A stretch of DNA of 64,000 bases from Candidatus Aenigmatarchaeota archaeon (lineage in GTDB: Archaea; Aenigmatarchaeota; Aenigmatarchaeia; CG10238-14; SCSR01), in NCBI GenBank assembly GCA_016181005.1, contig JACPAE010000004.1:78646-142645 (forward strand), in the 5' to 3' direction. Below, piece after piece: positions 6,381 to 48,386 of this stretch. The notes under the pieces were generated by a model. It worked only from the letters and a program-made list of their open reading frames with translations, was not told the DNA's origin and did not search any database. Positions within the stretch are counted from its first letter, which is position 1. Each line of letters starts with the position of its first letter. Position numbers and translations under genes: made by a program.

Positions 6381-7158
6381 ACTGGAAAAACCAAAGCTGA
6401 AGAACCCCATTTTCGTAGAAGGGTTGCCAGGAATAGGCCATGTGGGCAGGATTGCGGCAAGCTATCTGGTCGAGGAGCTGAAGGCGAAAAAGTTTGCAGA
6501 GCTAATTTCCTCGCATTTTATGCATTACGTGCTTTTGAAGCAGTCGTCTTCGGTGCATCTGCTGAAGAACGAGTTCTACTACCTGAAGGCGAAGGGAAGC
6601 GGAAGGGACTTGATAATACTTGTAGGCGATTCGCAGAGCGTGGATCCAGAAGGACATTACGAGATTGCGAACAAAATTCTCGAGTATCTGAAAAAATACG
6701 GTGTCAAGGAAATGATAACTCTAGGAGGCTTGGGTATAGGCGAGGTAAAGGACAAGCCAAAAGTTGTTGGAGCTGTGAGCGACGAAGGGATGGGCAAAAA
6801 GTACAAGAGCTACGGGATCGATTTCAACACTGCAAGCAAAGTCGGAACGATTATAGGCGCATCAGGATTGTTGCTGGGTTTAGGCAAGTTGTACGGCATG
6901 AGAGGGTTGTGCTTGCTGGGCGAGACCACAGGATACCCGCTTCTGCCAGATCCTAAAGCTGCAGAAGAAGTGCTAAAGGTCTTGGCAAAGGTTCTGGGTT
7001 TGAAGATGGATACTACAAAGCTTGACAAGAAGATAAAGGAAATGGAAGAGTTCATCAAGAAGATGGAGGACATGCAGAGGAAGGTTATGGGCCAGATGAT
7101 GCAGCAGCAGATGCCGCAGAAAAAGGAAGGCAAGGAAGAACTGAGCTACATAGGATAA
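6361..7158 (+). CDS. PAC2 family protein (proteasome assembly chaperone-like)
   Basis: N-terminal PIFVEGLPGIGHVGRIAASYL motif; conserved neighbour of nop10 in archaea. Confidence 0.7.
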   Translation: MSTEIIELEKPKLKNPIFVEGLPGIGHVGRIAASYLVEELKAKKFAELISSHFMHYVLLKQSSSVHLLKNEFYYLKAKGSGRDLIILVGDSQSVDPEGHYEIANKILEYLKKYGVKEMITLGGLGIGEVKDKPKVVGAVSDEGMGKKYKSYGIDFNTASKVGTIIGASGLLLGLGKLYGMRGLCLLGETTGYPLLPDPKAAEEVLKVLAKVLGLKMDTTKLDKKIKEMEEFIKKMEDMQRKVMGQMMQQQMPQKKEGKEELSYIG

Positions 7159-12128: not shown

Positions 12129-12854
12129 TTATCCGACACCAACCACATTAGTCCCAAACAATGCGCCCAATCCAATTCCGATAAAGTACCCGCTTATGGC
12201 AGCCAAAGTTCCTATCAATGCCAGCTCCAAACCGCTTCCGAGCCAGTTGCCCACGGTCAACTTCGCCTTAACAACACCTACAGCAAACAGCACTGCAACG
12301 GCAATAATCACCGAAGCTATCATCGCGTTTGAAATAGGCAAGAAAACAAATGGGACAAGCGGCACTATGGAACCTACTAAAGTTGCAACAAAAACAATCA
12401 ACCCATTCTTTATCGGCGATTTACCAAATTTTGGAGAAAGGTTAAGCTCTTCTGACATCATTGTGTCAACCCAAACCTTTTCGTTCGACGTGATAATTTT
12501 AACTATATCATTCAAAAGCCTGCCTTTGAAACCTTTCTTGGCGTATATTTCACGTATTTCTTTTATTTCGTCTTTTGGATTCTCTTTAATTGCATTTTCC
12601 TCTAAAGCTCTTTCAGCTTTGTAGTAGTCCCAATCAGCCTTGGTCGAAGTGTAAGCTACTGCAGCCATTGAAATAGTTTCGGCAAATGTCGCAGCCAATC
12701 CTGCGACGAGAACAATAAAAACATCGTTTGTGGCGCTAGCAACACCCAAAACAACTGCAAGGACGTTAACTAAACCATCCTGGCCCCCGAGAATTATATT
12801 GCCTATTTGTTCACCTCGAAAGTGTTTTTCATATTCAGGCATGCTTTTCTCCAC
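12129..12854 (-). CDS. VIT1/CCC1 family iron/manganese transporter
   Basis: N-terminal GGQDGLVNVLAVVLGVA motif and C-terminal TM bundle typical of VIT/DUF125. Confidence 0.65.
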   Translation of the reverse strand: MEKSMPEYEKHFRGEQIGNIILGGQDGLVNVLAVVLGVASATNDVFIVLVAGLAATFAETISMAAVAYTSTKADWDYYKAERALEENAIKENPKDEIKEIREIYAKKGFKGRLLNDIVKIITSNEKVWVDTMMSEELNLSPKFGKSPIKNGLIVFVATLVGSIVPLVPFVFLPISNAMIASVIIAVAVLFAVGVVKAKLTVGNWLGSGLELALIGTLAAISGYFIGIGLGALFGTNVVGVG

Positions 12855-13782: not shown

Positions 13783-15039
13783 TTATAAGCTTATGTCTGG
13801 TTCCTGCAAATGCTTTATCAGAGAATTCATAAATCTTGTGGCGTAAGCCCCGTCGACAATCCTGTGGTCAAACACCAGCGACAACGGCAGCACTTTCCTA
13901 ATCTCTACTTTCCCAGCGATTGCGAGAGGCTTGTCGTACATCCTTCCCACGCCAAGAATTGCGGCCTCCGGATAGTTGATTATGGGTGTGGCGAATGTCG
14001 CACCCAAGCTTCCGTAGTTGGTTATAGTGAAAGTGCCCCCCTTCAAGTCCTGCAAATCAATCTTCCTCTGTTTAGCCTTTTCTCCAAGCTCCTGAACCTC
14101 CTTTGCTATATCAAAAACATTCTTTATGTCAACGCCTTTAATGACAGGCACAAGAAGCCCCTCACCATCGACATCAACAGCGAATCCGAAGTTGTAATAT
14201 TTCTTTACGACAATCTCCTCCTCTTCTTCTAGGAGGCTGGAATTTAGCAGCGGAAACTCCTTCATTGCCGCCAGGCACGCCTTCATAATAAAAGGCATGT
14301 AAGTAAGGTGAATTCCCTGCTCCTTTGATTTAACCTTTTCTTTCTCTCTTAATTCAAACAGCTTGCTGACATCAGCTTCGTCCATGGCTGTCACATGCGG
14401 TATGTGCTTTACTGACTCTACCATGTGGGTTGCGATAACTTTCCTCAAGCCCCTCAGCGGAATTCTGTCGACATAGCCCCACATGTCGTATTTCTTCTTC
14501 ACAACCAGAGCCTTCTCTTCTTTAACCTCTTTTGTTCCCACAGCGCTTTTGACGTCTTCCTCTGTTATTCTTCCTTCTGGTCCTGTACCAGTGACTTTCG
14601 TTAGATCAACTCCCAATTCCTTAGCCAGATTTCTGACAGCAGGTGCGGCAAGCACTTTTTCACCGACTGCTTTAGGCGGAATTACAGGTCTTGGCTTAAC
14701 TTCCTCCTCATCAGGCGCCTCTTCAAGATAACCAACAGCGCCAGCAGCCTTCATGACAGGCCCTTTAATTTCCTGCCTGGATTCTGGGATATATTTTTCT
14801 CCCACTTCACCTATAACAAACAGAACCTGGCCGACTTTGACAGTTTCGCCCTCCTTGAAGTTAATCTTCAGCACAGCACCTGAATAAGGAGAAGGAATCT
14901 CTGCAACAGCCTTGTCAGTCTCGACCTCTCCGACAACTTGGTGCTCCTCTACCCTGTCGCCCTCCTTGATGAGCCATTTTACTATCTCCCCTTCTTCTAT
15001 GCCTTCGCCAATGTCGGGAAACTTGAACTCTTTCGGCAT
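13783..15039 (-). CDS. Dihydrolipoamide acyltransferase, E2 component of a 2-oxoacid dehydrogenase complex
   Basis: Lipoyl-lysine motif VETDKAVAEIPSP, peripheral subunit-binding domain, catalytic DHRIVDGA. Confidence 0.85.
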   Translation of the reverse strand: MPKEFKFPDIGEGIEEGEIVKWLIKEGDRVEEHQVVGEVETDKAVAEIPSPYSGAVLKINFKEGETVKVGQVLFVIGEVGEKYIPESRQEIKGPVMKAAGAVGYLEEAPDEEEVKPRPVIPPKAVGEKVLAAPAVRNLAKELGVDLTKVTGTGPEGRITEEDVKSAVGTKEVKEEKALVVKKKYDMWGYVDRIPLRGLRKVIATHMVESVKHIPHVTAMDEADVSKLFELREKEKVKSKEQGIHLTYMPFIMKACLAAMKEFPLLNSSLLEEEEEIVVKKYYNFGFAVDVDGEGLLVPVIKGVDIKNVFDIAKEVQELGEKAKQRKIDLQDLKGGTFTITNYGSLGATFATPIINYPEAAILGVGRMYDKPLAIAGKVEIRKVLPLSLVFDHRIVDGAYATRFMNSLIKHLQEPDISL

Positions 15040-15040
15040 T
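14992..15040. repeat. 49-bp direct repeat, copy 1 (covers the functional E2 start)
   Basis: ttcttctatgccttcgccaatgtcgggaaacttgaactctttcggcatt; matches 15535-15583 with one mismatch. Confidence 0.9.
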
Positions 15041-15048
15041 ATATCACA

Positions 15049-15534: not shown

Positions 15535-15583
15535 TTCTTCTATGCCTTCGCCAATGTCCGGAAACTTGAACTCTTTCGGCATT
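15535..15583. repeat. 49-bp direct repeat, copy 2 (remnant E2 start right after the E1-beta stop)
   Basis: ttcttctatgccttcgccaatgtccggaaacttgaactctttcggcatt; encodes a truncated MPKEFKFPDIGEGIEEII* remnant. Confidence 0.9.
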
Positions 15584-16561
15584 TTAAAAACTCATCACAT
15601 TTTCTATAGCTTTATTTATTCTTGTTGCATCAGGAATGTAATAGTTCTCCAGCTTTGGCAGCGGTACAGGAACATCATAACCAGTAACTCTCTGCACAGG
15701 CGCCTCTAAATTTAGTAAAGCTTTTTCATTTATCGTCGCAACCAATTCTGCACCATAACCACATGTCCTTGGCGCTTCCTGCACAACAACACACCTGCCA
15801 GTCTTCTTAACAGAGTCGATAAGAGTTTTCCTATCAACAGGATACAGTGTCAGCAAGTCAACAATCTCCACAGAATACTTTGACTGGGCAACAGCCTCAC
15901 GAACAACCTTCTGCATCGCACCCCAAGCAATAACAGTGATGTCACTCCCCTCCTGCACAACTTCGGCCTTGTTTAGCGGAATTGTATACTCTTCTTCAGG
16001 AACCTCTTCCTTGATTGCGCGGTAGACTCTTTTGGGTTCTAGGAAAACGACTGGATCAGGATCACGGATTGATGAAATCAACAATCCTTTTGCATTGTAA
16101 GGCCCCGATGGTGTAACAACTTTAATCCCGGGCATGTGCGTGAAGAATGCTTCCAATGATTCCGAATGATGTTCCAGTGCTCTGATTCCTCCACCGTGGG
16201 GAACTCGAAAAACTAGAGGCACGTGCCATTTTCCTTGAGACCTCTTCCTCATCCTGCCTGCATGATTGTAAAGCTGGTCGAGCATTGACATTGAAAAGCC
16301 GTCGAACTGAACTTCCGCTATAGGTTTCATTCCCGCAATAGCTAATCCAATCGAAGTGCCAATAATTCCAACTTCTGCCAGTGGAGTGTCAATAACCCTA
16401 TCATCGCCAAACTGTTGCCACAAGCCTTCTGTGACTCTGAAAACACCACCGTCTTTGCCGATGTCTTCTCCTAAAAGGATAACTGAGGGATATTTCTCCA
16501 TCTCCTGCTTTAGTGCAAGATTAATTGCTTGAACTAGGTTCATCTTCATAACATCACTCAA
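15584..16561 (-). CDS. 2-oxoacid dehydrogenase E1 component, beta subunit
   Basis: Transketolase-like C-terminal domain; 325 aa; 8-nt overlap with the E1-alpha gene. Confidence 0.85.
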   Translation of the reverse strand: MSDVMKMNLVQAINLALKQEMEKYPSVILLGEDIGKDGGVFRVTEGLWQQFGDDRVIDTPLAEVGIIGTSIGLAIAGMKPIAEVQFDGFSMSMLDQLYNHAGRMRKRSQGKWHVPLVFRVPHGGGIRALEHHSESLEAFFTHMPGIKVVTPSGPYNAKGLLISSIRDPDPVVFLEPKRVYRAIKEEVPEEEYTIPLNKAEVVQEGSDITVIAWGAMQKVVREAVAQSKYSVEIVDLLTLYPVDRKTLIDSVKKTGRCVVVQEAPRTCGYGAELVATINEKALLNLEAPVQRVTGYDVPVPLPKLENYYIPDATRINKAIENVMSF

Positions 16562-36447: not shown

Positions 36448-37152
36448 ATGCTCTATTTAACTATGACAACAACCAGCCAGCTATACCTGCCAATAAAAGG
36501 CATGCAATACTCAGTTATACCGGAAGTGTCTCTTCTTGGAAAAGACTTGTGGGAAGCGCAATTATACGCCCAGGATAATGGACTGGTAGTCTTGTCTTCT
36601 CCTGACATAAACAGGCTGGCAAGAGCCGTAAAGGGCGACAATCCAGACAGGCAATTCCTAAGATACGCAAGGGAACAGGCTGAAAAGCAAGGAACTTCAT
36701 TAAACGACAACGACGCAAAAGACGGATATAAACGGCTTCATGACGGATTATGGAAACAATACGTTGCTATAGCAAGGGAAATTCTTGTATGGACAAGAGA
36801 CGCACAACCTATTAATCACCCCATGATTGTTTTGAAAGATATGCCTGTAACGTCCCATCTAATAACGGACTATAGAGTTGAAAAGCAGGGCGACGGCTAT
36901 AGAATAGTCGAAGCTGTTGTAACGTCAGCCAACTGGATGAAAGAGGACGGGGCAATAACTCCTGAAATGGCACAATTGTTAGGCGCCGAACCCAATACAC
37001 ATGTCTGGACAAATCCAAATCCTGATTATGAAAATGGACTGAGGGCTCTCGGGTGGGACTTCAGGGGCCGTGAGAGGCCGTACCTGGTCTCGGACTGGGA
37101 GCCTTGGGACAGGAACTCCTATGGGGGTTCGCTTTTGGGTAGAAGGCTGTAA
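36448..37152 (+). CDS. DGR target (variable) protein; VR occupies the last 33 or so codons
   Basis: 3' end (37045-37143) matches the template repeat at all non-adenine positions; higher GC than neighbouring genes. Confidence 0.75.
   Translation: MLYLTMTTTSQLYLPIKGMQYSVIPEVSLLGKDLWEAQLYAQDNGLVVLSSPDINRLARAVKGDNPDRQFLRYAREQAEKQGTSLNDNDAKDGYKRLHDGLWKQYVAIAREILVWTRDAQPINHPMIVLKDMPVTSHLITDYRVEKQGDGYRIVEAVVTSANWMKEDGAITPEMAQLLGAEPNTHVWTNPNPDYENGLRALGWDFRGRERPYLVSDWEPWDRNSYGGSLLGRRL
37045..37143 (+). repeat. DGR variable repeat (VR)
   Basis: Aligns to TR 37389-37517; all 16 internal mismatches fall where TR has A. TR AAC/AAT codons correspond to GAC/TAC/GTC/TAT/GGT in VR. Confidence 0.8.
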
Positions 37153-37244
37153 GCTGTAAATGAAACATTAACAATTAGATTTATTCTATAAATCATAATT
37201 CTATATTCCTGGGCTATTGCTGGACAATGATGAAGGCAATGTCT

Positions 37245-37342
37245 GGGCTACACGCCTGTCCATAGCGCATTAGGGCTTTTTCCGTTTGGCCATGAAATAC
37301 AGAGGCGACAGATAGTAGCTATGACGGATGACATGACTAGTG
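37245..37342. repeat. Conserved ~98-nt element, copy A (between VR and TR); possible structured ncRNA or cis element
   Basis: About 95% identical to 47348-47446 (4 differences counted by eye). Confidence 0.6.
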
Positions 37343-37388
37343 CGAAACCTGAAGCTTCAGTGAAAACTTGGTGGATGGGCTAAGATAA

Positions 37389-37517
37389 GCTCTCAGGTGG
37401 AACTTCAGGGACCGTGAGAATATGTATCACGAAAGGCCGAACCTGAACTCGAACAGGGAGCCTTGGAACAGGAAATCCAACGACCTGATCTCCAATAGGG
37501 GTTCGCTTTTGAATAAC
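37389..37517 (+). repeat. DGR template repeat (TR)
   Basis: Intergenic, ends 20 nt upstream of the RT start. Rich in AAC/AAT codons in the VR frame. Carries two in-frame 15-nt segments absent from VR. Confidence 0.8.
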
Positions 37518-37537
37518 CCAGACCGCCCAGGATTTTT

Positions 37538-38503
37538 ATGAAGACGTACAATAAAATCTTTAACAAACTATGCTCCTTAGAGAATCTTAAACTGGCATTC
37601 AAAAAAGCCAAGAAAGGCAAAAGCAAGAAATGGTACGTAAAGGAATTTGAATGCAATTTGGATAATGAATTGACGAAATTAAAAATGGAACTGGATAATC
37701 AAACCTACAGACCACAGACATTAAAGAGATTCATAGTAAGAGATCCGAAAACAAGGGTCGTTCACGCATCAGCTTTCAGAGACAGAGTAGTTCATCATGC
37801 TATATGCAACATAATAGAACCTGTATTCGAGAAGATTTTCATTAATGACAGCTATGCCAACAGGAAGAAAAAAGGAACTCTTTCGGGATTAAATAGATTC
37901 GACAAATTCAAACATAAAGTTACTAGAAATCGTGAGTTATTAAGGAGTGCTAAAGACGGCAATATGACTGTAGGTTATGCCCTAAAAGCAGATATAAGGC
38001 ATTATTTTGATACTGTTGATTTGGAAATCCTAATGGAAATCATCCAAAAGAAGATAATCGACAGCAAAGTCCTGCGGTTAATAAAAGCAATTCTGGACAA
38101 CCATGATTTCAAAACTAAAGGAAAGGGAATGCCTCTTGGAAATTTAACGAGCCAGTTTTTCGCTAATGTCTATCTTAATGAGTTGGATTATTACGTGAAG
38201 CACAAACTCAAGGTAAAATATTATATTCGATATGTGGATGATTTTGTTATTCTGCACAGGTCTAAAGAAAAACTAGCGCTGTACAGGTGGATGATAGACA
38301 ACTTTCTAAAGCAGAGACTTAAGCTCGAATTGCATCCTGAGAAATCGAAAATCGTCCCCTTACATTATGGCGTAAAGTTACTAGGTTTTCGTGTGTTCTA
38401 CTACTATAAGCTACCACGGAAAAGCAATCTAAGGATTTTTGAAAAGAAATTAAGTATCTATACATTGACACCCAGAGAGAGAGAGAGCATATTGAAAAAC
38501 TGA
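37538..38503 (+). CDS. DGR reverse transcriptase
   Basis: RT motifs including YVDDFVIL (YxDD) and the DGR-specific motif-4 variant PLGNLTSQ (cf. IGNLTSQ of Bordetella Brt); 321 aa without a maturase or endonuclease domain. Confidence 0.85.
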   Translation: MKTYNKIFNKLCSLENLKLAFKKAKKGKSKKWYVKEFECNLDNELTKLKMELDNQTYRPQTLKRFIVRDPKTRVVHASAFRDRVVHHAICNIIEPVFEKIFINDSYANRKKKGTLSGLNRFDKFKHKVTRNRELLRSAKDGNMTVGYALKADIRHYFDTVDLEILMEIIQKKIIDSKVLRLIKAILDNHDFKTKGKGMPLGNLTSQFFANVYLNELDYYVKHKLKVKYYIRYVDDFVILHRSKEKLALYRWMIDNFLKQRLKLELHPEKSKIVPLHYGVKLLGFRVFYYYKLPRKSNLRIFEKKLSIYTLTPRERESILKN

Positions 38504-38613
38504 ATAAAATACTTGAAGGGGTGGTTTGGTTACGCTGCACAAGGAAATACTTACAAATTGAGAAAGAGAATTGTTAAAAGAACCAATAATATGATTCGAA
38601 ATCAAATAAAATT

Positions 38614-39459
38614 ATGAAGTTAGCTGTTGTTGCTTTAGGCGGTAATTCTTTGATTCACCCCAAAGAACGAGGAACTGCCGAAAAACAGATCAAACGTGTT
38701 AATAAGACAATTAGCCATCTTAAACCTCTTGCAAGAAAATTTACCCTAGTTTTAACACACGGCTCGGGACCTCAAGTGGGCAATCTATTGTTTCAGCAAA
38801 AGCTTTCTAAGAAAACTTTGCCAGAAATGCCTTTAGACACCTTAGATTCTATGGTGCAGGGCCAGCTCGGTTATTGGATACAGCAAGCTGTTGAAAATGT
38901 TCTGCATAAGAATGCCGTCACTATCATTACACGTGTGCTAGTTGACAAAAGCGACAATGCATTCAAACATCCTACCAAGCCAATAGGTCAGAAGAGCTGG
39001 AAAAAAATGGTAGCATCCCCCATACCAATTCAAATAATTGATGTGGAAAAAATCAAAGCTCTAGTAAAAAATAATTTTGTTGTTATCGCTTGTGGCGGCG
39101 GCGGCATCCCGGTAATTAAAAAGGTTGGAAAGTTCAGCGGTGTAGAAGCCGTGGTGGACAAAGATCATGCCACACAAAAACTTGCATCGCAATTGAAAGC
39201 CGATACAATAATCTTCCTTACTGATGTGCAATATGTTTTTTACAATTATGGGAAATCAAGCCAAAAGCCTCTTAGGAAGTTGTCAATTGAAAATGCTATA
39301 AAATATCTCAAGGATAACCAGTTCGAGGAAGGGTCTATGAAGCCTAAAATTGAGGCAAGTGTGGAATTCCTGAAGAAAGGCGGAAAGAAAGTCTTGATTA
39401 CTTCTCCTGAGAAATTAAATTTAGCACTAAAGGGAAAGGCAGGAACAGTGGTTGAATGA
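38614..39459 (+). CDS. arcC: Carbamate kinase
   Basis: MKLAVVALGGNSL N-terminus, amino-acid-kinase fold; 281 aa. Confidence 0.75.
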   Translation: MKLAVVALGGNSLIHPKERGTAEKQIKRVNKTISHLKPLARKFTLVLTHGSGPQVGNLLFQQKLSKKTLPEMPLDTLDSMVQGQLGYWIQQAVENVLHKNAVTIITRVLVDKSDNAFKHPTKPIGQKSWKKMVASPIPIQIIDVEKIKALVKNNFVVIACGGGGIPVIKKVGKFSGVEAVVDKDHATQKLASQLKADTIIFLTDVQYVFYNYGKSSQKPLRKLSIENAIKYLKDNQFEEGSMKPKIEASVEFLKKGGKKVLITSPEKLNLALKGKAGTVVE

Positions 39460-40325
39460 AGAAGGATTTGTTGTCGATCAATGATCTGTCTAAAGCCGAT
39501 GTAGAAAAGATTTTTAAATTGGCTGATAAATTGAGAAATAAAAGGACGAATTATCTGAAAGGGAAAAATGTCGCATTAATATTCCAAAAACCATCCACTC
39601 GGACAAAAGTTTCTTTTGAAGTTGCTATTAATCACTTGGGTGGCAATGCAATAAGTTTGAATTGGAACGAACTTCAACTTGGCAGAGGAGAAACAATCGA
39701 AGACACTGCTAAAGTTTTAGAAAGGTATGTCGACGCCATAGTCATAAGGGACTTTTACCATGACCATATAGTTAATATGGCCAAGATTGCAAAGATACCT
39801 GTAATTAACGCCTTATCCCATCTGGAGCATCCTTGCCAGGCTTTAGCTGACTTGTACACTATAAGACAAAAGAAGAAAAGCTTGAAAGGCAAAAAAATAG
39901 TTCTTCTAGGGGACGGCTCAAACAATACTTTTCATTCATTGGTTTTATCATCCGAAAAATTCGGCATGGAGGTAGTTGTATCATGTTCAAAGAATTACAA
40001 ACCTAAAGTTAAAGCAAATTATAAAATCGTAGAAAATCCGAAGGAAGCAGTTAAAGGCGCTGATGTTCTTTATGTGGACAGTTTTGTTAGCATGGGAGAG
40101 GAGGCTGAACAAGAGAAAAGATTAAGGGAATTGAGGAATTACCAATTAAACTCAGATTTGGTCAAGTTAGCAAAAAAGGATGTTATTGTGCTTCATCCGT
40201 TACCAGCCCATCGTGGACAGGAAATATCTTCTAAAGTCATTGATGGTAAGAGTTCTGTTGTGTTTGACCAATCTGAGAATAGATTACATACGGAAAAAGC
40301 CATTTTGCAATTGCTAGTAAGATGA
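39456..40325 (+). CDS. argF: Ornithine carbamoyltransferase
   Basis: STRTKVSFEVA carbamoyl-phosphate binding motif and HPLPAHRGQE; 4-nt overlap with arcC. Confidence 0.75.
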   Translation: MKKDLLSINDLSKADVEKIFKLADKLRNKRTNYLKGKNVALIFQKPSTRTKVSFEVAINHLGGNAISLNWNELQLGRGETIEDTAKVLERYVDAIVIRDFYHDHIVNMAKIAKIPVINALSHLEHPCQALADLYTIRQKKKSLKGKKIVLLGDGSNNTFHSLVLSSEKFGMEVVVSCSKNYKPKVKANYKIVENPKEAVKGADVLYVDSFVSMGEEAEQEKRLRELRNYQLNSDLVKLAKKDVIVLHPLPAHRGQEISSKVIDGKSSVVFDQSENRLHTEKAILQLLVR

Positions 40326-40354
40326 ATTTAATAAAGTAAAAGAATTATTTATTA

Positions 40355-41830
40355 ATGGCTGTTGCAACCTACAAAATGTATATAGATGGCAAATGGGGTT
40401 CAAGCAATTCTGGTGAGACCTATACACGTGTCAACCCGGCCAACTACAACCAAGTTCTTGGCAGATTCCAGCAAGGCAATAAAGAGGACGTTAACAAAGC
40501 TGTAGATGCTGCTGAAGATGCTTTTGAAAAATGGAGGAATGTACCACCGCCAAAAAGAGGAGAGATTCTTTTGCGAGTTGCACAATTGCTTAAAGAGCAT
40601 AAAGAAGAGTTGGCACGAACAATGACTCGGGAGATGGGAAAAGTTCTTATGGAAACTCGCGGGGATGTTCAAGAGGCAATAGATACATGCGAGTTGATGG
40701 CTGGAGAAGGTAGGAGATTGTTCGGAAGAACTACAACAAGCGAATTGCGAGACAAATTTGCAATGACTGTTCGTTTGCCTTTAGGTGTTGTCGCATGCAT
40801 AACACCGTGGAACTTTCCTATTGCTATACCTGCATGGAAAATTACAGCGGCACTGATTTGTGGAAATACAGTAGTCTTCAAACCTTCCAGTGACACTCCG
40901 ATTTGCGCAACTAAATTCATTGAAATTCTAGAGAAAGCCGGTGTGCCAAAAGGTGTAGTTAATATGGTAACTGGTCCTGGTGGAACTGTAGGCACTCACT
41001 TGGTCAAGCATAAGAAAGTCAGAGCAGTGTCGTTCACCGGCCACAAGGATACAGGTGCACAAATCTTGAAAGATGCCGGAATAGGGAAGAAAATTGGCTT
41101 GGAGATGGGAAGCAAGAATCCAATAATTATTATGGACGACGCTGACTTGGAGCTGGCGTTGGACGGAGTTGTTTGGGGTGCGTTCGGCACATGCGGGCAA
41201 AGATGCACCGCAGCCAGCCGTGTTATTGTCCACAAGAAAGTTAAGGAAAAGTTTCAGAGAATGTTAATAGAACGTGCAAAAAAGCTGAGAATGGGAGACG
41301 GTTTGCATCCGAAAACAGATGTTGGGCCGCTGGTAAACAAGGCAGCGCAAGAGAAAGTTGCAAAATACATTGAGCTAGGAAAGAATGAAGGCGCCAAATT
41401 ATCTTATGGAGGTAAAGTTCCAAAATTGAAGGGGTGGTTTGTAGAGCCGACAATATTCACAGGCGCATCACCAGACATGAAAATTTTCCAGGACGAGATA
41501 TTCGGTCCTGTTACAAGCTTGACAGAAGCCAGAAATTTGGACCATGCAATCGAGCTTGCCAATGCTGTAGAATACGGGCTCAGTTCGTCCATTTACACTA
41601 GCAATATACAGAATGCAATGAAGGCGATAAAATATCTTGAATATGGACTCACCTACGTCAATTCATCGACGATAGGTTCAGAGGTTCATTTACCATTCGG
41701 AGGGACGAAAGCTTCAGGCTCAGGGCATAAAGAAGTTGGTTGGACTGGCATAGAGTTCTTTACTGATGAAAAGACTGTGTACATCGACTATTCCGGCAAA
41801 TTGCAAAGGGCGCAAATCGATATAGAATAA
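40355..41830 (+). CDS. NAD(P)-dependent aldehyde dehydrogenase
   Basis: ALDH catalytic region (LEMGSKNP, GQRCTAASR); 491 aa. Confidence 0.85.
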   Translation: MAVATYKMYIDGKWGSSNSGETYTRVNPANYNQVLGRFQQGNKEDVNKAVDAAEDAFEKWRNVPPPKRGEILLRVAQLLKEHKEELARTMTREMGKVLMETRGDVQEAIDTCELMAGEGRRLFGRTTTSELRDKFAMTVRLPLGVVACITPWNFPIAIPAWKITAALICGNTVVFKPSSDTPICATKFIEILEKAGVPKGVVNMVTGPGGTVGTHLVKHKKVRAVSFTGHKDTGAQILKDAGIGKKIGLEMGSKNPIIIMDDADLELALDGVVWGAFGTCGQRCTAASRVIVHKKVKEKFQRMLIERAKKLRMGDGLHPKTDVGPLVNKAAQEKVAKYIELGKNEGAKLSYGGKVPKLKGWFVEPTIFTGASPDMKIFQDEIFGPVTSLTEARNLDHAIELANAVEYGLSSSIYTSNIQNAMKAIKYLEYGLTYVNSSTIGSEVHLPFGGTKASGSGHKEVGWTGIEFFTDEKTVYIDYSGKLQRAQIDIE

Positions 41831-42026
41831 CTAGCAGCAGTCTTTCCCGCATGCGCACATCTGTTCCTTGCTTTCCTTTTTCCTCGATTTCATAACATCA
41901 ATTCAGGGTCTATACTTAAATCTTTAACAGCATCTCTTATTATTCGAGTGCCATGGAACCTGTTGAAGCATTGAGGTATGAATAACAAGTCCGATAACAA
42001 CACAGATTAATTTTTATCGTCACCTA

Positions 42027-43038
42027 ATGTTACATAGCGGTATAATGTACAATCTCGGAGCAATAGGCTTGGGTCATTGGGTAAAGAGATTGCATCATGT
42101 GCTTGAAAAAGGAAACAAGATGAAGCTTCTCAAGGCTGTTGCACTCAAAACTTACGAAGAAAGGAAGGACGAATTGGAATCTTACGGGATAGCAAAAGAC
42201 AGATATTTTAATGTGAACTCAGACGGTAAAATTCCAACCGGGTTTTTCAGAGATATCGACGTCGTGCAGATAGCAAGCCACAATAAGTTCCATTTCAACC
42301 AACTGCTCCAGTGCCTCTCAAATAGAAAACTCACTATAGTAGAAAAGACTTTAGCTGTTAATAGAGACGAGTTCAACCAAGTCATGGAGAATAACAAATT
42401 TTGACACAGTTTTTCTTGAGAAAGCCGATGAGGAAGACACTAGAAGAGGATGGGTTTTTTCGCCTGAACACGGCGGCATATTCATGGACTTGATACATCC
42501 GGTAGAGATTCTAGTCCAGATATTGAAAGCGGATTTGGACGAACTGACTGACGCCAGGACATATATAGTGAAACCTGAATACGACAGCAAGAATCCGAGC
42601 GCAGTGCAAGTCATCTATAAAGTTAGTGGTAGTAAATTTGCAAAGGACGCAGTCGCAACAATAAAGCTCGGCAAAGGCTTTGATATGGCTTCAGACAAGA
42701 AAATCATGCGACTGTATTTTGAAGACGGCACGTTTATCGAGTTCGAATATCTAAACACAGAAGAAGAGCTTGCGACAGGCAAAAGAGGAAGTTGGAAGCT
42801 GTTCAAGAGCGAAGAAGGCGGTGCCAAATTGTTGGAAAGCAAGGAGGTGCAAGGCCTTTTGTCCTACGAGACTCTGATAAACGAGGTTGTAAAAATTCTT
42901 CAAGGCGGAGAGATGCCTCTGACGTTGGACGAGATAAAACGCATGTACGAGTCCGAGTGGCAGTTCCAGGAAATCTCAAAAGATTTGAAGCCGATTACAG
43001 ACAAGGAAGAGATTAAAAAACTCACTGAGGGTATTTAA
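42027..43038 (+). pseudogene. Gfo/Idh/MocA family oxidoreductase disrupted by a +1 frameshift in a T-run (or sequencing error)
   Basis: ORF 42027-42404 carries the NAD-binding N-domain with the EKTLA motif and stops at aaattttga. Frame +1 is open from 42403 into ORF 42484-43038. Removing one T from tttt gives ...NNKFDTVFLEKADEED... read-through. Confidence 0.55.
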
Positions 43039-43063
43039 ATTCTTAATCGACTCTTAATAAAAT

Positions 43064-43774
43064 ATGCCAACTATAGTTGTAGCCACCTCTATCGAGGAAG
43101 CTTTACACGAATTAGCAAACTATCTAGTCCCTATAGAGCAATCCAAATTTTCCCAATTAGGGTGTTACGGAGAGCCGTTAAGATCCAACAGGCAAGTTGA
43201 ACTTAAAGGCAGGGGATCTCTTGTAGGAGACGATGGTACAATTAGACTTAACCTGCCGGAACAGATACTATTTTTCAACTTACTAGACTCAAAATACGGT
43301 CCTCTAGAGCACGGCAATCTGGAACGGCAATTAAGAGCAGCCTATTCTCCAGAAGGGCAATCCTACAAAGACAATGTTCTGGCTCTTTTCTGGGTGTATA
43401 CAGGCGAGGTTGGAATAAAATTAGAAAATGGTCATGTGTTTGGAAGAGCTGTTAAAGTTGAGCCTATACCAACAGGTATATCAACAGGTACTGTTGTTTT
43501 TGAAGACGAATCACAAGCTCAGCCCAGCCCAGGGGACTACAAATTTACTCTAAACAGATCGGGAGTTTATGTGCCTACTGACATAGGTCGATTTGATCAA
43601 ATAGGAGAAGCAGAAGGCAATGGTTATTGGCATGGTGTTTATCCAGACAGCCAAGGCAGGTCTGTTGTCAGGTGCGGCTGGGACTCTGGCGATGGGGGGT
43701 TTGGCGCGGATGCGTACGGGCTGTTGGTCAGGGCCGTCGCTACCACTCTGGGTACGTGGAGAAAGGCAGCTTAA
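43064..43774 (+). CDS. hypothetical protein, Gly/Trp-rich C-terminus (paralog family with 36448 and 46688)
   Basis: GNGYWHGVYPDSQGRSVVRCGWDSGDGG tail resembles the C-termini of the DGR target and ORF 46688; GC-rich. Confidence 0.4.
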   Translation: MPTIVVATSIEEALHELANYLVPIEQSKFSQLGCYGEPLRSNRQVELKGRGSLVGDDGTIRLNLPEQILFFNLLDSKYGPLEHGNLERQLRAAYSPEGQSYKDNVLALFWVYTGEVGIKLENGHVFGRAVKVEPIPTGISTGTVVFEDESQAQPSPGDYKFTLNRSGVYVPTDIGRFDQIGEAEGNGYWHGVYPDSQGRSVVRCGWDSGDGGFGADAYGLLVRAVATTLGTWRKAA

Positions 43775-43828
43775 TCACTCTTTTGTTTATTTGAAATATC
43801 TTTTTGACAATGTACGAGATTGATTATT

Positions 43829-44776
43829 ATGAAAGTTGGACTTGTAGGCTTGGGAAGAATGGGAACAGACATAGCCAAACGGCTTGTTAATGGCGGTCAT
43901 GAAGTTTTTGTCTGGGGAAGAAGTGATAAAGTTTTCAAGAATGCCGAAGAAGTAGGAGCTAGGGGAACAACAGACATGCAAGAATTCTTTAACCAGTTGC
44001 CCTCACCCAGAATTATATGGTTGATGGTTACTTCTGACGCGGTCGATGAAGTGTTGCAAAAGACAATGCCATATTTGAGCAAAGGCGATATAGTTGTTGA
44101 CGGCGGCAACTCTTTTTTCAAAGACTCCATAAGGCGTGCAAGCGAATTGAAAGACAAGGGAATTAATTTTCTTGATGTGGGCACGAGCGGCGGAATCGAG
44201 GGCGAGGAAATCGGCTATTGCATCATGGTCGGCGGCGAAAAAGAAATATTCCATAAAATCGAGCCGATACTGCAGAAGATTGCTACCAAAGACGGCTATG
44301 GCTATGTCGGCAAGTCCGGCGCCGGCCATTTCGCCAAGATGGTGCACAACGGAATCGAATACGGCATGATGGAATCGATAGGCGAAGGGGCGGCTATGCT
44401 GAAAAATTCCCAGTTTGATTTTGACCTCCGCGAAGTTTTCAGAATATACAGCGCGAAATCAATCATCGACTCGAGGCTTGTGAGCTGGACTTTGAATGAA
44501 TTAAGGGAAAATCCGGATCTTTCCGGCATCTCCTCGATAATAGGCTCTGGAGGAAGCGGAGAAAAAATTGTTGGCGAAGGCCACTGGACTGTTCAGACAG
44601 CTAAAGAGATGGGCATAGACGTGCCGGCCATAGAGGCTGCAGTCAGGGTAAGGGATTCGTCCGACAAGGATTCTGAAAGCTCGCCGTCCGGCTTTAGAAA
44701 CAAGGTAGTTGCTGCTATGCGCTGGCAATTCGGCCAGCATCCTGTTAAAAAGGATAAGCCGAAGGAAAACGAATGA
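43829..44776 (+). CDS. 6-phosphogluconate dehydrogenase-like NAD(P)-binding protein (short, decarboxylating-type)
   Basis: MKVGLVGLGRMGTDIAKRL Rossmann N-terminus; HNGIEYGMM motif. Confidence 0.7.
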   Translation: MKVGLVGLGRMGTDIAKRLVNGGHEVFVWGRSDKVFKNAEEVGARGTTDMQEFFNQLPSPRIIWLMVTSDAVDEVLQKTMPYLSKGDIVVDGGNSFFKDSIRRASELKDKGINFLDVGTSGGIEGEEIGYCIMVGGEKEIFHKIEPILQKIATKDGYGYVGKSGAGHFAKMVHNGIEYGMMESIGEGAAMLKNSQFDFDLREVFRIYSAKSIIDSRLVSWTLNELRENPDLSGISSIIGSGGSGEKIVGEGHWTVQTAKEMGIDVPAIEAAVRVRDSSDKDSESSPSGFRNKVVAAMRWQFGQHPVKKDKPKENE

Positions 44777-44783
44777 ATAAAGC

Positions 44784-46022
44784 ATGGTAGCGCTTGACCC
44801 AATCGTGCCTGTGATAGCAATCTTTACGCTAGTTGTTCTTGTGCTCGGCGTGATACTGCGGTATCTCGGCCAGCCTTATGTCATAGCATACATAGTCGCA
44901 GGCCTGCTGCTTGGAGCCAACGGCCTTGGGTTGAGCAATGATTTCATACTTTCCCAGCTAGGCACAGTAGGAATAATTCTCCTCCTCTTTTTTATCGGGA
45001 TGGAAGTGTCGTTGCCCCGGCTGGTCTCGAACTGGAGGGTGGCGATAGTCGGCACGACCCTGCAAATAATACTCAGCGTCATACTCATTGTGATTCTTGG
45101 CACGCTACTTAGCTGGCCTTTGGAGCGCAGCATTCTCTTCGGCTTTGTAATCAGCCTAAGCAGCACCGCAGTGGTGCTCAAGATACTGGAGGACAGGAAT
45201 GAGCTGAACACAAAAGTCGGCCAGAACATGCTCGGAGTCCTTCTGGTTCAGGATCTGGCCGTTATTCCCATGCTGATAATTCTCAGCATGTTCGGTGGCA
45301 AGTCCCTTTCGGGCGGCGAACTTGCACTGCCATTGATAGGAACTATCCTGATAATAGGCACTGTTTCTTGGATAGTCAAGCGCGGAGGGATATCTCTTCC
45401 GTTCGGCGAGGCAATAAGACAGGATCATGAGACGCAAGTGTTTGTCGCGCTTGTCATAGCATTCGGCTTTGCGTTGGTGACCGCGTTGTTCGGCCTTTCT
45501 TCAGCATTCGGCGCTTTCGTCGCAGGAATTCTTGTAGCAGCCACGCGGGAGACCCACTGGATACACATGAACCTTAATCCTTTCAGAATAGTCTTCGTCG
45601 CGCTTTTCTTCGTCTACATCGGCATGCTGATAAGCATAGATTTCCTGCTTGAGAACCTGCTCATGATAGGCGTCTTAACCGTCGCAGTATTTGTGGTTAA
45701 CACGGTGGCAAATGCCGTGATATTTAGGTTCTTGGGAGACGGCTGGAAGGAGAGCTTCTATTCCGGCGCACTGCTTTCGCAGATAGGTGAGTTCAGTTTC
45801 GTTCTTGTTTCCGTAGGCTTGCACCAAGGACTTGTCGCCGAGTTCGGCTACAACATCACAATCTCAATTATAGCTCTGACACTGCTCCTTAGCCCGTTCT
45901 GGATTTACTTCATGAAGAGGGTAACCCAGGCAGACTTTAAGAAGTATACGATACCTGTAATAACTCTGCCGGATTTTCCCGGTAGGGGGAAGTCCAAGTA
46001 CAGCTACAAGCCGAAGAAATGA
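44784..46022 (+). CDS. Cation:proton antiporter (CPA family)
   Basis: About 12 TM segments; 412 aa. Confidence 0.65.
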   Translation: MVALDPIVPVIAIFTLVVLVLGVILRYLGQPYVIAYIVAGLLLGANGLGLSNDFILSQLGTVGIILLLFFIGMEVSLPRLVSNWRVAIVGTTLQIILSVILIVILGTLLSWPLERSILFGFVISLSSTAVVLKILEDRNELNTKVGQNMLGVLLVQDLAVIPMLIILSMFGGKSLSGGELALPLIGTILIIGTVSWIVKRGGISLPFGEAIRQDHETQVFVALVIAFGFALVTALFGLSSAFGAFVAGILVAATRETHWIHMNLNPFRIVFVALFFVYIGMLISIDFLLENLLMIGVLTVAVFVVNTVANAVIFRFLGDGWKESFYSGALLSQIGEFSFVLVSVGLHQGLVAEFGYNITISIIALTLLLSPFWIYFMKRVTQADFKKYTIPVITLPDFPGRGKSKYSYKPKK

Positions 46023-46061
46023 GCATAGAGCAATTGCTATTTCACCTTTAGTAAAAACTTC

Positions 46062-46313
46062 TCATTCGTAAATGCTCTCTCTTTGCCCGATTTTGTAAAC
46101 AATTATATCCTTACCTTCCAAATAAAACAGTATCCTAAGCTTCCCCACTCTTAATCTATAATGGTTCTGATAACCTTTCAATTTCCTAATGTCTAAAGCA
46201 TAGGAAAAGCCCCCTTCCAAAATCTTCAATTTACCGGTTATGCTTTCTTTCAACTTTTTGGGTAATTTCTCCAATTCCTTAGAAACCTTTTTCTCAAGAA
46301 GTATATTAAACAT
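46062..46313 (-). CDS. RelE/ParE family toxin (paralog of 15049-15300)
   Basis: HYRLRVGKLRILFYLEGKDIIVYKIGQR C-terminal signature. Confidence 0.6.
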   Translation of the reverse strand: MFNILLEKKVSKELEKLPKKLKESITGKLKILEGGFSYALDIRKLKGYQNHYRLRVGKLRILFYLEGKDIIVYKIGQRESIYE

Positions 46314-46520
46314 TTACTTCAGCTTGCTTAAAGGAACCAGTTTTAGTTTTCCTTCCCTTCTTTTGTTTTCAAAGCCTCTTATTGCAACAATATCTTCTCT
46401 GGTAGGCGCTTCAACACCAACGACCCTGCTTTCAACCAGCATAGACACCTTTCTCAATTCATTTCTTATTTCTTTCAGCTCATCCATCAAGTATCTTGGT
46501 TTCAATTTTTCATGTCTCAT
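46314..46520 (-). CDS. putative antitoxin (paralog of 15297-15503)
   Basis: MDELKEIRNELRKVSMLVES resembles LSELRDVKRHLIRVESMLAE of the other antitoxin; abuts the toxin start. Start codon uncertain (ORF track extends to 46580). Confidence 0.45.
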   Translation of the reverse strand: MRHEKLKPRYLMDELKEIRNELRKVSMLVESRVVGVEAPTREDIVAIRGFENKRREGKLKLVPLSKLK

Positions 46521-46687
46521 GTTAACTAATTGTTTCTCTTGTTTTATAAATATTCGCCCGACGATTTTCCATCGCTTCACGCACTGGCTTTCTATAAGCT
46601 ATACTTACATGAATTAATAATATTTAAATCCTTTCCTGTCACTATTAAATTAGATTATAATGACCACGGCCAGACAGCTTAGTTTCA

Positions 46688-47299
46688 GTGCCGGAAGAGC
46701 AAGAATTGTATACTGTAAAGGTCCGAACGGGTATGAACGCAGGAGTATGGCGAGTTGGCAGACAACTTGTCAGAACACCAAATGGCATCTTTATACCATA
46801 TAATGAAGGATTGACTGTAGTACAAGCTTATGACGCAGTACAAAATGATCCGGCCTTGCTTGAAGCATGTCTTGAACTTGTTCCAGTAACAGTTTTGTTA
46901 TACGGCATACAGCATGATGGAGATTTTTATAAAATGCTGAGAGGAACTTACCAGTTGACTGGAAGCGGCGTTGTTGACTCCCGCCTTTTGGGAACGCCAA
47001 ATGTGACCAGAGGCGATCTGCAATACCATGGATTAAGAAATGACCGCCCTATTGCCAGAATCGAACCCCAAAATGGACGTGTAGAAAAACTCGATAAAAC
47101 TGCTTTATGGGGCGTTGGAAAAGGCTCTAAGGTAGAATCTGAAAATCCAACACATCCAACATACATGTATAATGCTGATGGTAATAGATTTGTTGGCTTG
47201 GGCTTCGGGTACGGCGACGCCGTCGGCGTGAACGCGGACTGGAATCCGTTGAGTCGGGCCTTCGATTGGGGCGCCCGGTTGGCAAAGAAGGCAGAATAA
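46688..47299 (+). CDS. hypothetical protein, Gly/Trp-rich C-terminus (paralog of the DGR target family)
   Basis: C-terminal NPTHPTYMYNADGNRFVGLGFGY resembles PNTHVWTNPNPDYENGLRALGWDF of the DGR target; followed by a second copy of the ~98-nt element. Confidence 0.4.
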   Translation: MPEEQELYTVKVRTGMNAGVWRVGRQLVRTPNGIFIPYNEGLTVVQAYDAVQNDPALLEACLELVPVTVLLYGIQHDGDFYKMLRGTYQLTGSGVVDSRLLGTPNVTRGDLQYHGLRNDRPIARIEPQNGRVEKLDKTALWGVGKGSKVESENPTHPTYMYNADGNRFVGLGFGYGDAVGVNADWNPLSRAFDWGARLAKKAE

Positions 47300-47347
47300 A
47301 AACTTATCCTTGAAAATCAAATTTTTTATTTGTCCTGGCGAAAGCAT

Positions 47348-47446
47348 GGGATACACGCCTGTCCATAGTGCATTAGGGCTTTTCCGTTTGGCCATGAAAT
47401 ACAGGGGCGACAGATAGTAGCTATGACGGATGACATGACTAGTGAG
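47348..47446. repeat. Conserved ~98-nt element, copy B
   Basis: Near-identical to 37245-37342; lies in a convergent intergenic region. Confidence 0.6.
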
Positions 47447-48386
47447 TCGCGAGATAATCCTTGATGTGGTCAATCATGCTCGTCCCGTAAGGGTCTATGC
47501 TGTTCTTCTCGGCCATGTAGTAGGAGACAAAATCGCCTAAAATTATCATGTGCAGAATCCTTTCCAGCCTAGTCTCGCCCTCCCCAAACACTTCATGAAC
47601 ACCCGTCCTCTTGCTCAGCAGTTTCTTGTCCACGTCAAAGCTGTTCTTCACGTCCCTGTCCTCGTGCGATTCCCGCAGGAAAATCACCGAGAAGTTGCTG
47701 TCAAGCCTATGCCATGACTCGACGTCATTGTGGTGTATCTCCGGCAGTATCTCGTCCTTTGCCAGCAACTTGGAGTTCTCATTCAACTGCGTCTTGAACC
47801 TGAGTGCCGGGGACGGATAGTGGGACACTATAATCGGCATGGTTCCGTTGATTTTATCCACCAGCTGCTTGGCCTCGTTCTCTATCCTGTTCATGTTCTT
47901 CGACAAAGTCCTGAACTCCGGCACCTTTACAAGCTTCAGGCTTTCGAAAACCGACAAGGATGCGGCAAGCAGGTAAGGGAATGCGACCCTGGGCATCAGG
48001 CCCTCGTTGAGCTTGACGCAAGGCAGCTTCTTCTTCACTGCCAACTCCCTCATCTTTCCCCCTGACGTTATGCAGACTGTCTTGCACTTTCTCTTTACAG
48101 CCTGCTCCAGCTGCGCCAGAGTCTCCCATGTGTTGCCCGAATAACTGGCAGCTATCACAAGAGTGTTCGAGCCGGCATAACCCGGCAATTTGTGGTTCCT
48201 GGAGACCTCGATTGGCACGTGCAATGCGTCCTTGAAAGAATCCTTTATGACATCCCCGGATATGGCCGAGCCCCCCATGCCGCAAATGACTATGTTGCTG
48301 AACTGCCTATAGTCGGCAGGAAGCTTTACGTCAGAACTAAGAACGTCCTTGACATACTTGAGAGAATTTCTTATGTCCGCAAGCAT
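47439..48386 (-). CDS. Bifunctional phosphoglucose/phosphomannose isomerase (SIS domain)
   Basis: NIVICGMGGSAISG SIS motif near the N-terminus; 315 aa. Confidence 0.65.
   Translation of the reverse strand: MLADIRNSLKYVKDVLSSDVKLPADYRQFSNIVICGMGGSAISGDVIKDSFKDALHVPIEVSRNHKLPGYAGSNTLVIAASYSGNTWETLAQLEQAVKRKCKTVCITSGGKMRELAVKKKLPCVKLNEGLMPRVAFPYLLAASLSVFESLKLVKVPEFRTLSKNMNRIENEAKQLVDKINGTMPIIVSHYPSPALRFKTQLNENSKLLAKDEILPEIHHNDVESWHRLDSNFSVIFLRESHEDRDVKNSFDVDKKLLSKRTGVHEVFGEGETRLERILHMIILGDFVSYYMAEKNSIDPYGTSMIDHIKDYLATH

Follow-up and report, generated by a model that had tools for sequence, protein, structure and literature searches.

A repeat at a diversity-generating retroelement of an Aenigmatarchaeota archaeon is part of an RT-16 RNA, a probable leader of the template repeat, and has a truncated second copy

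Introduction

In a stretch of 64,000 nucleotides (nt) from a Candidatus Aenigmatarchaeota archaeon (assembly GCA_016181005.1, contig JACPAE010000004.1, positions 78,646 to 142,645; hereafter, the window), an element of about 98 nt is found in two near-identical copies. The first one, copy A, stands beside a diversity-generating retroelement (DGR), between its target gene and its template repeat (TR), whereas the second one, copy B, is located downstream of another gene. The original prediction, made from the sequence of the window, presented this repeat as a conserved element in its own right and put forward several possible identities, among them a DGR-associated structured RNA, a target-recognition element and a 3' element shared by a gene family. 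The analysis reported here shows that copy A belongs to RT-16, an RNA family of the Rfam database. The explanation that best accounts for the whole, and that is regarded as likely, is that copy A is part of the leader of the template RNA of the DGR and that copy B is a truncated remnant.

Copy A within the RT-16 RNA

The sole above-threshold Rfam match in the whole window is RT-16 (RF03019), at 37208-37388 on the plus strand. As scored by cmscan, this match reaches 89.5 bits, for a gathering score of 50, with an E value of 8.5e-13, and covers the full model (positions 1-158). Copy A constitutes the 5' two-thirds of this 181-nt element, and its membership of the family is virtually certain. The element is conserved, as had been claimed, but it is not free-standing: it represents only the stretch of the 37208-37388 RNA that runs from a conserved box to the loop of the innermost hairpin. 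The match also bears out, for copy A, the idea of a DGR-associated structured RNA. No other Rfam family was found for copy A or copy B in the same scan, and neither tRNA nor tmRNA is present in the window. A C/D-box RNA, at which the box-like strings could hint, is not supported, as the Rfam scan gives no match to a snoRNA family.

RT-16 is one of nineteen "RT" motifs reported in 2017 near reverse transcriptase (RT) genes, without an assigned function; of those motifs, only RT-10 was linked to a DGR, roles in retrons or DGRs being otherwise a matter of speculation (PMC5737381). In the window, the RT gene starts 150 nt downstream of RT-16, in accordance with the position next to an RT gene that is expected for the family.

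The RNA begins with helix P1, the base of which consists of strand a (CCUGGGC, 37208-37214) on the 5' side and strand b (GUCUGGG, 37241-37247) on the 3' side, on either side of the top of P1 (37215-37240). Then come the conserved box (CUACACGC, 37248-37255), the 5' strand of helix P2 (37254-37263), the core helices and the 3' strand of P2 (37371-37380), all on the plus strand. P1, P2 and the core helices were recovered, with compensatory pairs, by RNAalifold on five relatives, in concordance with the cmscan alignment. Copy A (37244-37342, plus strand) corresponds to RT-16 model positions ~40 to 108: it sets in 4 nt before the end of P1, runs through the box and the 5' strands of P2, P3 and P4, and stops with the P4 apical loop. 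All the 3' strands (GCGAAACCUGAAGC ... GUGGAUGGGC-UA) lie beyond the repeat. A lineage-specific CAUUAG:CUAGUG pairing, displayed by the minimum free energy (MFE) fold, was rejected as unconserved, since L004 and L087, two of the related loci (designated here by L numbers), retain CAUUAG without its partner.

In some loci, the box is preceded, at a distance of about 18-20 nt, by a (U)GAUGA(A/G) motif, located in the window at 37226-37233, in the top of P1. GATGA occurs there in 11 of 69 loci and ATGA[AG] in 18 of 69, against about 3 and 7 expected, and other loci show GGAGUA in its place. Judging from its sequence, the motif may be a k-turn or k-loop site of the L7Ae type.

Association of RT-16 with the template repeat

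The DGR cassette of the window is composed, in this order, of the target gene with a variable repeat (VR) at its 3' end, RT-16, the TR, a 22-nt spacer and the RT gene, all on the plus strand. The target gene (36448-37152), which belongs to no Pfam family, includes the VR at ~37045-37140, with the initiation of mutagenic homing (IMH) sequence UUUUGGGUAG at its end; a homologue of this gene is the DGR target in L004. The TR (37389-37516) ends with IMH* (GAAUAA, 37511-37516). The mismatches between TR and VR are only at TR adenines, including all 8 of the best aligned segment. The spacer harbours two segments, b' (CCCAGAC, 37517-37523) and a' (GCCCAGG, 37525-37531), antisense to P1 strands b and a, respectively. 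The RT gene (37538-38503) encodes a protein of 321 aa with a Pfam RVT_1 domain (E 1e-22), for which the best match among solved structures is the bRT of a Bordetella phage (8ub7, E 5e-43), with a near full-length alignment. The clade of this RT is very large in DPANN, with thousands of homologues.

The comparison was extended to 80 genome loci (RT +/- 10 kb) encoding relatives of this RT and to five metagenome contigs. RT-16 attains at least the gathering score in all 17 related loci scanned and, with a profile built from the Rfam matches, exactly one copy adjoining the RT gene was detected in about 75 of the 80 DPANN loci. Within the 175 nt that immediately follow RT-16, 59 of 74 loci have a match to a VR. 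In these 59 loci, 92.3% of the 752 TR/VR mismatches are at TR adenines, and the TR/VR homology begins 1-8 nt past the terminal GCUA of RT-16 in 46 of them.

The arrangement of the other components is less constant. RT-16 can be found on the strand opposite to the RT gene, with the TR still directly after it in every such locus tested (L029, L070, L079, L050, L049 and L055), and L004 has an extra gene between VR and RT-16. Because the adjacency to the TR survives these rearrangements of the cassette, RT-16 goes with the TR and not with the RT gene or the VR. Nine other loci possess remote VRs, which display neither an RT-16 box nor a profile match and most of which are followed by a short GC-rich hairpin. 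Both observations, namely that RT-16 follows the TR instead of the VR in rearranged cassettes and that the remote VRs lack the box, speak against the target-recognition element that had been envisaged.

Upstream of RT-16, a TATA-like box (ATTTATTCTATAAAT, 37179-37193, plus strand) constitutes a putative archaeal promoter for an RT-16/TR transcript. Across 58 loci, words of the TATA type are most frequent 29 to 24 nt before the first paired base of RT-16 (mode, -27). Since this peak is placed 27 nt upstream of the first base of strand a, the RNA probably starts at a (~37208).

Avd is common to many DGRs, but not to all of them, and is not strictly defining. The small open reading frames (ORFs) around the cassette of the window gave no Pfam match, and none of them is Avd-like. 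P0116, an RT homologue of 523 aa from the same clade, carries a precomputed bAvd-like domain (PF22296) in addition to RVT_1. A few related cassettes also possess bAvd-like ORFs of their own, so that not all RT-16-type DGRs are devoid of Avd.

Long-range pairing around the template repeat

RT-16 very probably functions as a leader of the TR and forms a long-range helix with the sequence that follows the TR. Segment b' pairs with b and a' with a, the sequences varying by locus while their complementarity is kept. The b:b' pairing was tested on 64 loci by confronting the 12 nt before the box with the 12 nt that follow a GAAT[AG][AG] motif, the first one to occur 75 nt or more past RT-16; both anchors were picked blind to complementarity. 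Over the 8 bp of this helix, 74.2% of the cells are paired versus 55.7% in shuffles, and none of 500 shuffles equalled the observed value. Cells altered on both sides number 133 versus 53 in shuffles, and sliding the partner by 1-3 columns brings the pairing down to 26-46%. The helix extends into the box, position 2 of which (U/C) covaries with position 5 of IMH* (A/G): UA is encountered in 49 loci, CG in 11 and UG in 3. The A of CUA and the U of IMH* form an invariant pair (64/64 loci). Through b:b', the invariant CUA of the box is joined to the UAG/UAA of IMH*, of which the general form is GAAUAR.

As for the second helix, strand a was found by folding the upstream region by itself. Cognate a:a' duplexes have a mean energy of -11.3 kcal/mol, versus -5.8 for non-cognate ones (p = 3e-20). 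Segment a' is also kept in loci with no RT gene after it, such as L079. Folding 37200-37540 without constraints gives an MFE structure in which a:a', the top of P1, b:b' and P2 are all present, and these helices are likewise part of the consensus that RNAalifold obtained from five relatives. The long-range helices, like the base of P1, include G.U pairs on the plus strand, which argues for an interaction at the level of RNA rather than DNA. As a consequence of b:b' and a:a', the RT-16 core and the TR are closed in one loop, with both extremities of the TR kept at the RT-16 junction.

Copy B and the gene upstream of it

The existence of a near-identical repeat was confirmed. The two copies (37244-37342 and 47347-47444) are the same at 95 of 99 positions, the alignment showing three substitutions and one 1-nt indel. 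Their flanks, as had been stated, are diverged: no alignment is obtained outside the copies, except for a weak likeness in the AT-rich upstream spacer. Only five families of direct repeats of at least 30 nt exist in the 64 kb, which excludes a chance origin. In several sequencing runs of the same population, Logan unitigs are bounded exactly at k-1 = 30 nt overlaps with both copies. Thus, unitig L001 covers 37345-47435, beginning just past copy A and stopping inside copy B, and L084-L086 reach copy B from the other side and terminate at 47415. At both junctions, the unitigs contain copy-specific single-nucleotide polymorphisms (SNPs) and unique flanks. This pattern of breaks is to be expected of a k=31 graph holding both copies, each with its own SNPs and flanks, and, since independent assemblies break at both copies, the repeat is not an assembly artefact.

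Both copies were initially described as intergenic, but the end of copy B overlaps a convergent SIS/bifunctional PGI gene (47439-48386, minus strand). Indeed, the last 6 nt of copy B are the final codon and the TAG stop (47439-47441, minus strand) of this gene, which marks the truncation boundary. Taken with its own P1, copy B is a truncated, B-type RT-16 on the plus strand at 47334-47444, in which the repeat proper occupies 47347-47444. A mini-P1 (CCUGGC-GAAA-GCAUGGG, 47334-47350), also present in the complete element of L026 and hence a natural variant, precedes the box (AUACACGC, 47351-47358). The copy holds the 5' strands up to the P4 apical loop and is deprived of every 3' strand, of the TR and of the RT. 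The Rfam scan of 47200-47700 returned no RT-16 match even at E<=10, and only positions 26-120 of the 183 positions of the profile are covered. As it fails the Rfam model, copy B is a fragment and not a member of RT-16. Its fold is no stabler than that of shuffled sequence (z +1.37).

The gene upstream of copy B (46688-47299, plus strand) encodes a conserved body followed by a hypervariable C-terminal block. The protein corresponds to the NCBI entry HYT70_04610, to which it is identical from an internal start. It belongs to a family of ~213 aa, with no Pfam domain and with 13 homologues at 65-73% identity, in which a hypervariable block of ~25 aa is enclosed between conserved NRFV.L and GARLAKK(I/V)E motifs. 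In its sequence, this block resembles a VR signature. No TR matching the gene was found in the window. In most genomes, members of the family are located among housekeeping genes, far from any RT. Paralogy with the DGR target, as originally asserted, is weak: the VR-like block is in its favour, but BLASTP detects nothing significant (E 0.2), and the C-terminal coding sequences are 62.5% identical over 48 nt. Among viral contigs, the mini-P1 has no match and the conserved VR end of the gene family only chance-level ones. The viral contig L102 (IMGVR_UViG_3300017693_000018) includes at 12299-12505 two adjacent stretches, 114 nt apart, that resemble the VR-like C-terminus of the 46688-47299 product, with 39% and 35% aa identity over 31 aa. 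By this resemblance, they may represent a VR/TR pair of related type.

The possibility of a 3' element shared by a gene family is partly retained. A B-type fragment does follow orthologues of 46688-47299 in L092 and L096 and, in degenerate form, in L098, but none is present after the orthologues in L093, L095 and L099, and the cut points differ. In L092, this mini-P1 and the box are kept together with 48 nt of RT-16, after which the sequence is unrelated; L096 has the mini-P1 and at least 70 nt of RT-16, up to the contig end; L098 retains a degenerate middle piece. The truncation occurs in the P4 loop in the window and at the start of P3 in L092, and the downstream neighbours of the fragment differ in each genome. 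Owing to this patchy presence and to these differing cuts, a decaying relic fits better than a required 3' element. In L095 (~6675-6712), the 3' untranslated region of the orthologue contains a 38-nt insert, TTGGAACTTCAGGAAGCGTGAGAAAATGGTTCACGAAA, that resembles the 5' part of the TR of the window, including a hairpin found in TR only; this insert occupies the site where other orthologues have the RT-16 fragment.

Outside the population of this organism, the profile search of the 80 loci and five metagenome contigs revealed no second or half copy of RT-16. Candidates for a split RT-16 or for orphan 3' halves (L026, L049 and L029) proved to be whole elements interrupted by insertions. No relative is as close to copy B as copy A is. 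The two share an apical loop that is different in every other lineage aligned there, and their identity begins exactly where their differing P1s end. Gene conversion over the shared tract offers the best explanation of this near-identity. Among the fetched loci, no master RT-16 was found for the L096 organism.

Copy B is moderately likely to be a non-functional relic. An ancestral second cassette, made of the gene, a B-type RT-16, a TR and an RT, would have served 46688-47299 and would later have been truncated to varying extents or lost. In the window, a deletion extending to the end of the PGI gene would have removed the TR, the RT and all the 3' strands, from that of P4 onward.

Proposed mechanism and comparison with known systems

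In the ribonucleoprotein of the Bordetella phage BPP-1, TR 117-129 pairs with Sp 47-56, and Sp A56 primes via its 2'-OH. After two more nt, Sp 59-70 and avd 369-379, the latter just ahead of the TR, form a duplex called "cPRT Stop". The cDNA stops just before this duplex, and other parts of Sp bind bRT and Avd (bioRxiv 10.1101/2023.10.23.563531). When pairings of the phage RNA were disrupted, compensatory changes failed to bring activity back. RT-16 presents in succession strand b with CUA, which pairs with IMH* and b', then CAC, the 5' strand of P2, the core stem-loops, the 3' strand of P2 and, after ~8 nt, the TR. This is the same cyclic order as in the phage RNA, opened elsewhere, and it is for this reason that a permuted scaffold is proposed.

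By analogy, strand b with CUA would be equivalent to the primer strand (Sp 47-56), the invariant A at 37250 being the candidate priming nucleotide. Helix P2, three nt (CAC) later, would be the counterpart of the "cPRT Stop" duplex of avd and Sp, given that its 3' strand precedes the TR by only ~8 nt. The RT-16 core, with its AGUA/GAA loop, could stand for the RT-binding remainder of Sp. RT-16 would then bind the RT, position initiation and bound cDNA synthesis, in cassettes that are mostly without Avd. That RT-16 combines the roles of primer, stop and RT-binding scaffold, as a permuted phage-type RNA, is a proposal credited with slightly less than balanced confidence. A more specific version is put forward still more tentatively: RT-16 would be a natural circular permutation of the DGR scaffold, with its structured part before the TR, in which two covarying helices replace the covalent link and clamp IMH* on CUA, so that the RNA alone, without Avd, could position cis-priming and stop the cDNA.

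The resemblance to the DGR RNA of BPP-1 (PMC6182149; bioRxiv 10.1101/2023.10.23.563531) includes a homologous RT and a TR looped out between segments that pair across it. In both systems, the 3' region of the TR is in duplex with a strand ending in an invariant A; a few unpaired nt separate it from a second duplex, the other strand of which is just upstream of the TR. Both have, in addition, extra stem-loops including a sarcin-ricin-like loop, and the cyclic order of primer strand, stop strand, accessory stem-loops, stop strand and TR is common to the two. A JAR3D search of Rfam had identified a loop of sarcin-ricin type in RT-16, where the AGUA/GAA loop is a weak match, and in RT-10, as a strong one (PMC13085918). 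Nevertheless, the large structured part is located 5' of the TR here and 3' of it in the phage, and the covalent link from TR to primer in the phage is replaced here by base pairing (b:b' and a:a'). A duplex encloses the TR in both cases, but its upstream strand is here 5' of the RT-16 core and not next to the TR. The spacer between TR and RT measures here only ~22 nt (37517-37537), which is not a spacer of the BPP-1 type. RT-10 is not matched by the Rfam scan of the window, and the window has no Avd. Since, in addition, bAvd-like proteins are encoded by only 3 of the 149 small ORFs that neighbour related cassettes, a stem-loop for the binding of Avd is not to be expected.

With respect to RT-16 as published (PMC5737381), the full covariance model is matched by copy A with its flanks, and an RT gene is nearby, whereas the present analysis adds that RT-16 is fused with the TR, where its promoter is placed, that it pairs with IMH* and with the spacer, and that the lower part of P1 may swap partners. 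The DGRs described in nanoarchaea and other DPANN (PMC4372165) have RTs of the same clade, L009 being SCGC AAA011-G17, a nanoarchaeal single-cell genome. They also share the IMH/IMH* pattern (GGGGU-type in VR, GGAAU-type in TR) and have orphan proteins as targets. In contrast to the present cassettes, that paper gives IMH/IMH* and a GRA-loop hairpin after the VR and describes neither a structured RNA between VR and TR nor a pairing of IMH* with one. Retron msr/msd RNAs are comparable as structured noncoding RNAs beside an RT, with a 2'-OH priming nucleotide and inverted repeats closing the template. Unlike in retrons, the RT here is of the DGR clade, the TR/VR pair shows adenine-specific mismatches, and there is no template of the msd type or effector gene.

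Alternative explanations

Three other explanations were considered, the most serious of which, although unlikely, is that copy B is functional. It could give, from its retained promoter-like box, a half RNA acting in trans as a decoy or regulator of the RT; it could be the 5' half of a split RT-16; or it could be a homing landmark, as DNA or RNA, for 46688-47299. In no fewer than three genomes, which differ in what lies further downstream, the orthologous gene is followed by the fragment with an identical mini-P1, and this fragment is better conserved than the neighbouring protein-coding gene, but it is degenerate in L098 and lacking in L093, L095 and L099. The end of copy B falls in a hairpin loop, a place at which the halves of a split RNA could come together again via P2-P4, whereas the truncation point is not shared by L092 (start of P3 instead of the P4 loop), no orphan 3' half exists in the window or in ~100 loci, and the fragment has no stable fold by itself. 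The upstream gene family has a VR-like hypervariable block, but the TR of the window is mismatched to 46688-47299, and the remote VRs of the nine other loci do without any RT-16 box or profile match. It is very improbable that the copies have no RNA role, whether as the borders of a segment duplicated recently, as an assembly artefact or as direct repeats that bound a mobile or excisable 10-kb segment. The copies are indeed direct repeats, 10.1 kb apart, that bracket the RT and metabolic genes and at which assemblers break; however, copy A fits a curated covariance model with covarying helices, and the unitigs display the copy-specific SNPs and unique flanks at both junctions. The flanks are unrelated on both sides, which speaks against the larger duplication with misjudged flanks that the original prediction had named as its possible refutation. 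B-type fragments occur in other genomes without the 10-kb arrangement, and the stretch between the copies carries arginine-biosynthesis and other housekeeping genes and no mobility genes. Least probable of all, to the point of being negligible, is a small RNA in its own right, for instance a guide RNA of the C/D-box or another type, that happens to neighbour the DGR. The GAUGA-like and CUGA strings of the P4 loop and 3' strand, and the (U)GAUGA of P1 in some loci, recall such RNAs, but the GAUGA motif is internal and limited to 11-18 of 69 loci, only RT-16 is matched in Rfam, and the element is fused to the TR in ~60 loci and pairs with IMH* and the TR-RT spacer.

Several points also weigh against the preferred explanation, in which copy A is part of a template-RNA leader and copy B a remnant. 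Some ~140 nt separate the upstream strand of the long-range helix from the TR, whereas the two are contiguous in the phage. Segment a' often comes with an AGGA/GGGA-like motif 5-13 nt ahead of the RT start codon (37525-37537 in the window), so that part of the a:a' signal could come from translation control; the a:a' helix could hide the ribosome-binding site too. The base of P1 pairs with itself as well, as in the Rfam model, which makes two alternative states possible, and the long-range helix may be one of them. The priming, stop and RT-binding roles are proposed from topological analogy, and gene conversion between copies A and B is something that we infer. Lastly, the parts retained in copy B are the same at 47 of 48 nt as in L092, the adjacent protein having only 73% aa identity, and the promoter-like box is retained; such strong conservation together with a retained box is unexpected for a pure relic.

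Further features of the cassette and of the window

Two in-frame 15-nt segments of the TR of the window (37419-37433 and 37475-37489) form hairpins, CGUGA-GAAUAUGUA-UCACG and CAGG-AAAUCCAACGA-CCUG, and are missing from the VR. The first one is at the same place in three relatives, with compensatory changes in its stem (CGUGA/UCACG vs CACGA/UCGUG). In L005, the VR arm is derived from the TR arm of the same locus by A-to-N changes and yet is without the 15 nt. TR-only segments of 6-31 nt exist in 16 of 57 loci, and the loci with a TR longer than the VR include L004, L005, L088, L010, L018, L023, L044, L009, L014 and L007. Several of these segments share the signature C(A/U)(G/C)G|GAAAU-[stem-loop]-GAC|C(U/G)(G/A)G. 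These sequence features suggest that template hairpins may be skipped by the RT, or that the template may be processed. In surveys, TR/VR indels were put down to AAC-repeat slippage (PMC5758913). A bulge-helix-bulge intron was considered for these hairpins and rejected for its misfit geometry, with a central helix of 4-8 bp and asymmetric bulges.

Elsewhere in the window, another direct repeat of 52 nt is found at 14992-15043 and 15535-15586, with 96% identity and a distance of 543 nt, and a weaker third copy of its end lies at 37875-37908, within the RT gene. Between copies A and B, the Logan contigs L001 and L002 are ~108 nt longer at 42382-42388, so that the ORFs 42027-42404 and 42484-43038 are replaced by one intact product of 375 aa, with a weak GFO_IDH_MocA match. 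This length difference could be a deletion, strain variation or an assembly difference.

Significance

The element that includes copy A adds a member to an Rfam family already known, of which copy B is only a fragment. In the literature searched, no description was found of the fusion of RT-16 with the TR, of the place of its promoter, of its covarying long-range pairing with IMH* and with the spacer, or of the permuted correspondence with the phage RNA. These features give a testable function to RT-16, included in Rfam since 2017; its mechanistic part is what we infer from them. DPANN and the candidate phyla radiation are the largest known reservoir of DGRs, whereas, to our knowledge, detailed work on the DGR mechanism is confined to the Bordetella phage system and, less extensively, Legionella.

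As a caution, copy B illustrates that conserved RNA fragments can persist by former target genes and break assemblies. If the RNA is indeed an Avd-free permuted scaffold, it would show which features of DGR RNAs are universal, namely a primer duplex, a stop duplex and a looped-out template. It would also offer a minimal two-component system for reconstitution or engineering, composed of an RT of 321 aa and an RNA of ~330 nt, and would provide a precise marker of the TR boundary for the annotation of archaeal DGRs. Linked to this, the conserved TR hairpins that are never copied into the VR would point to a programmed skipping or processing of the template.

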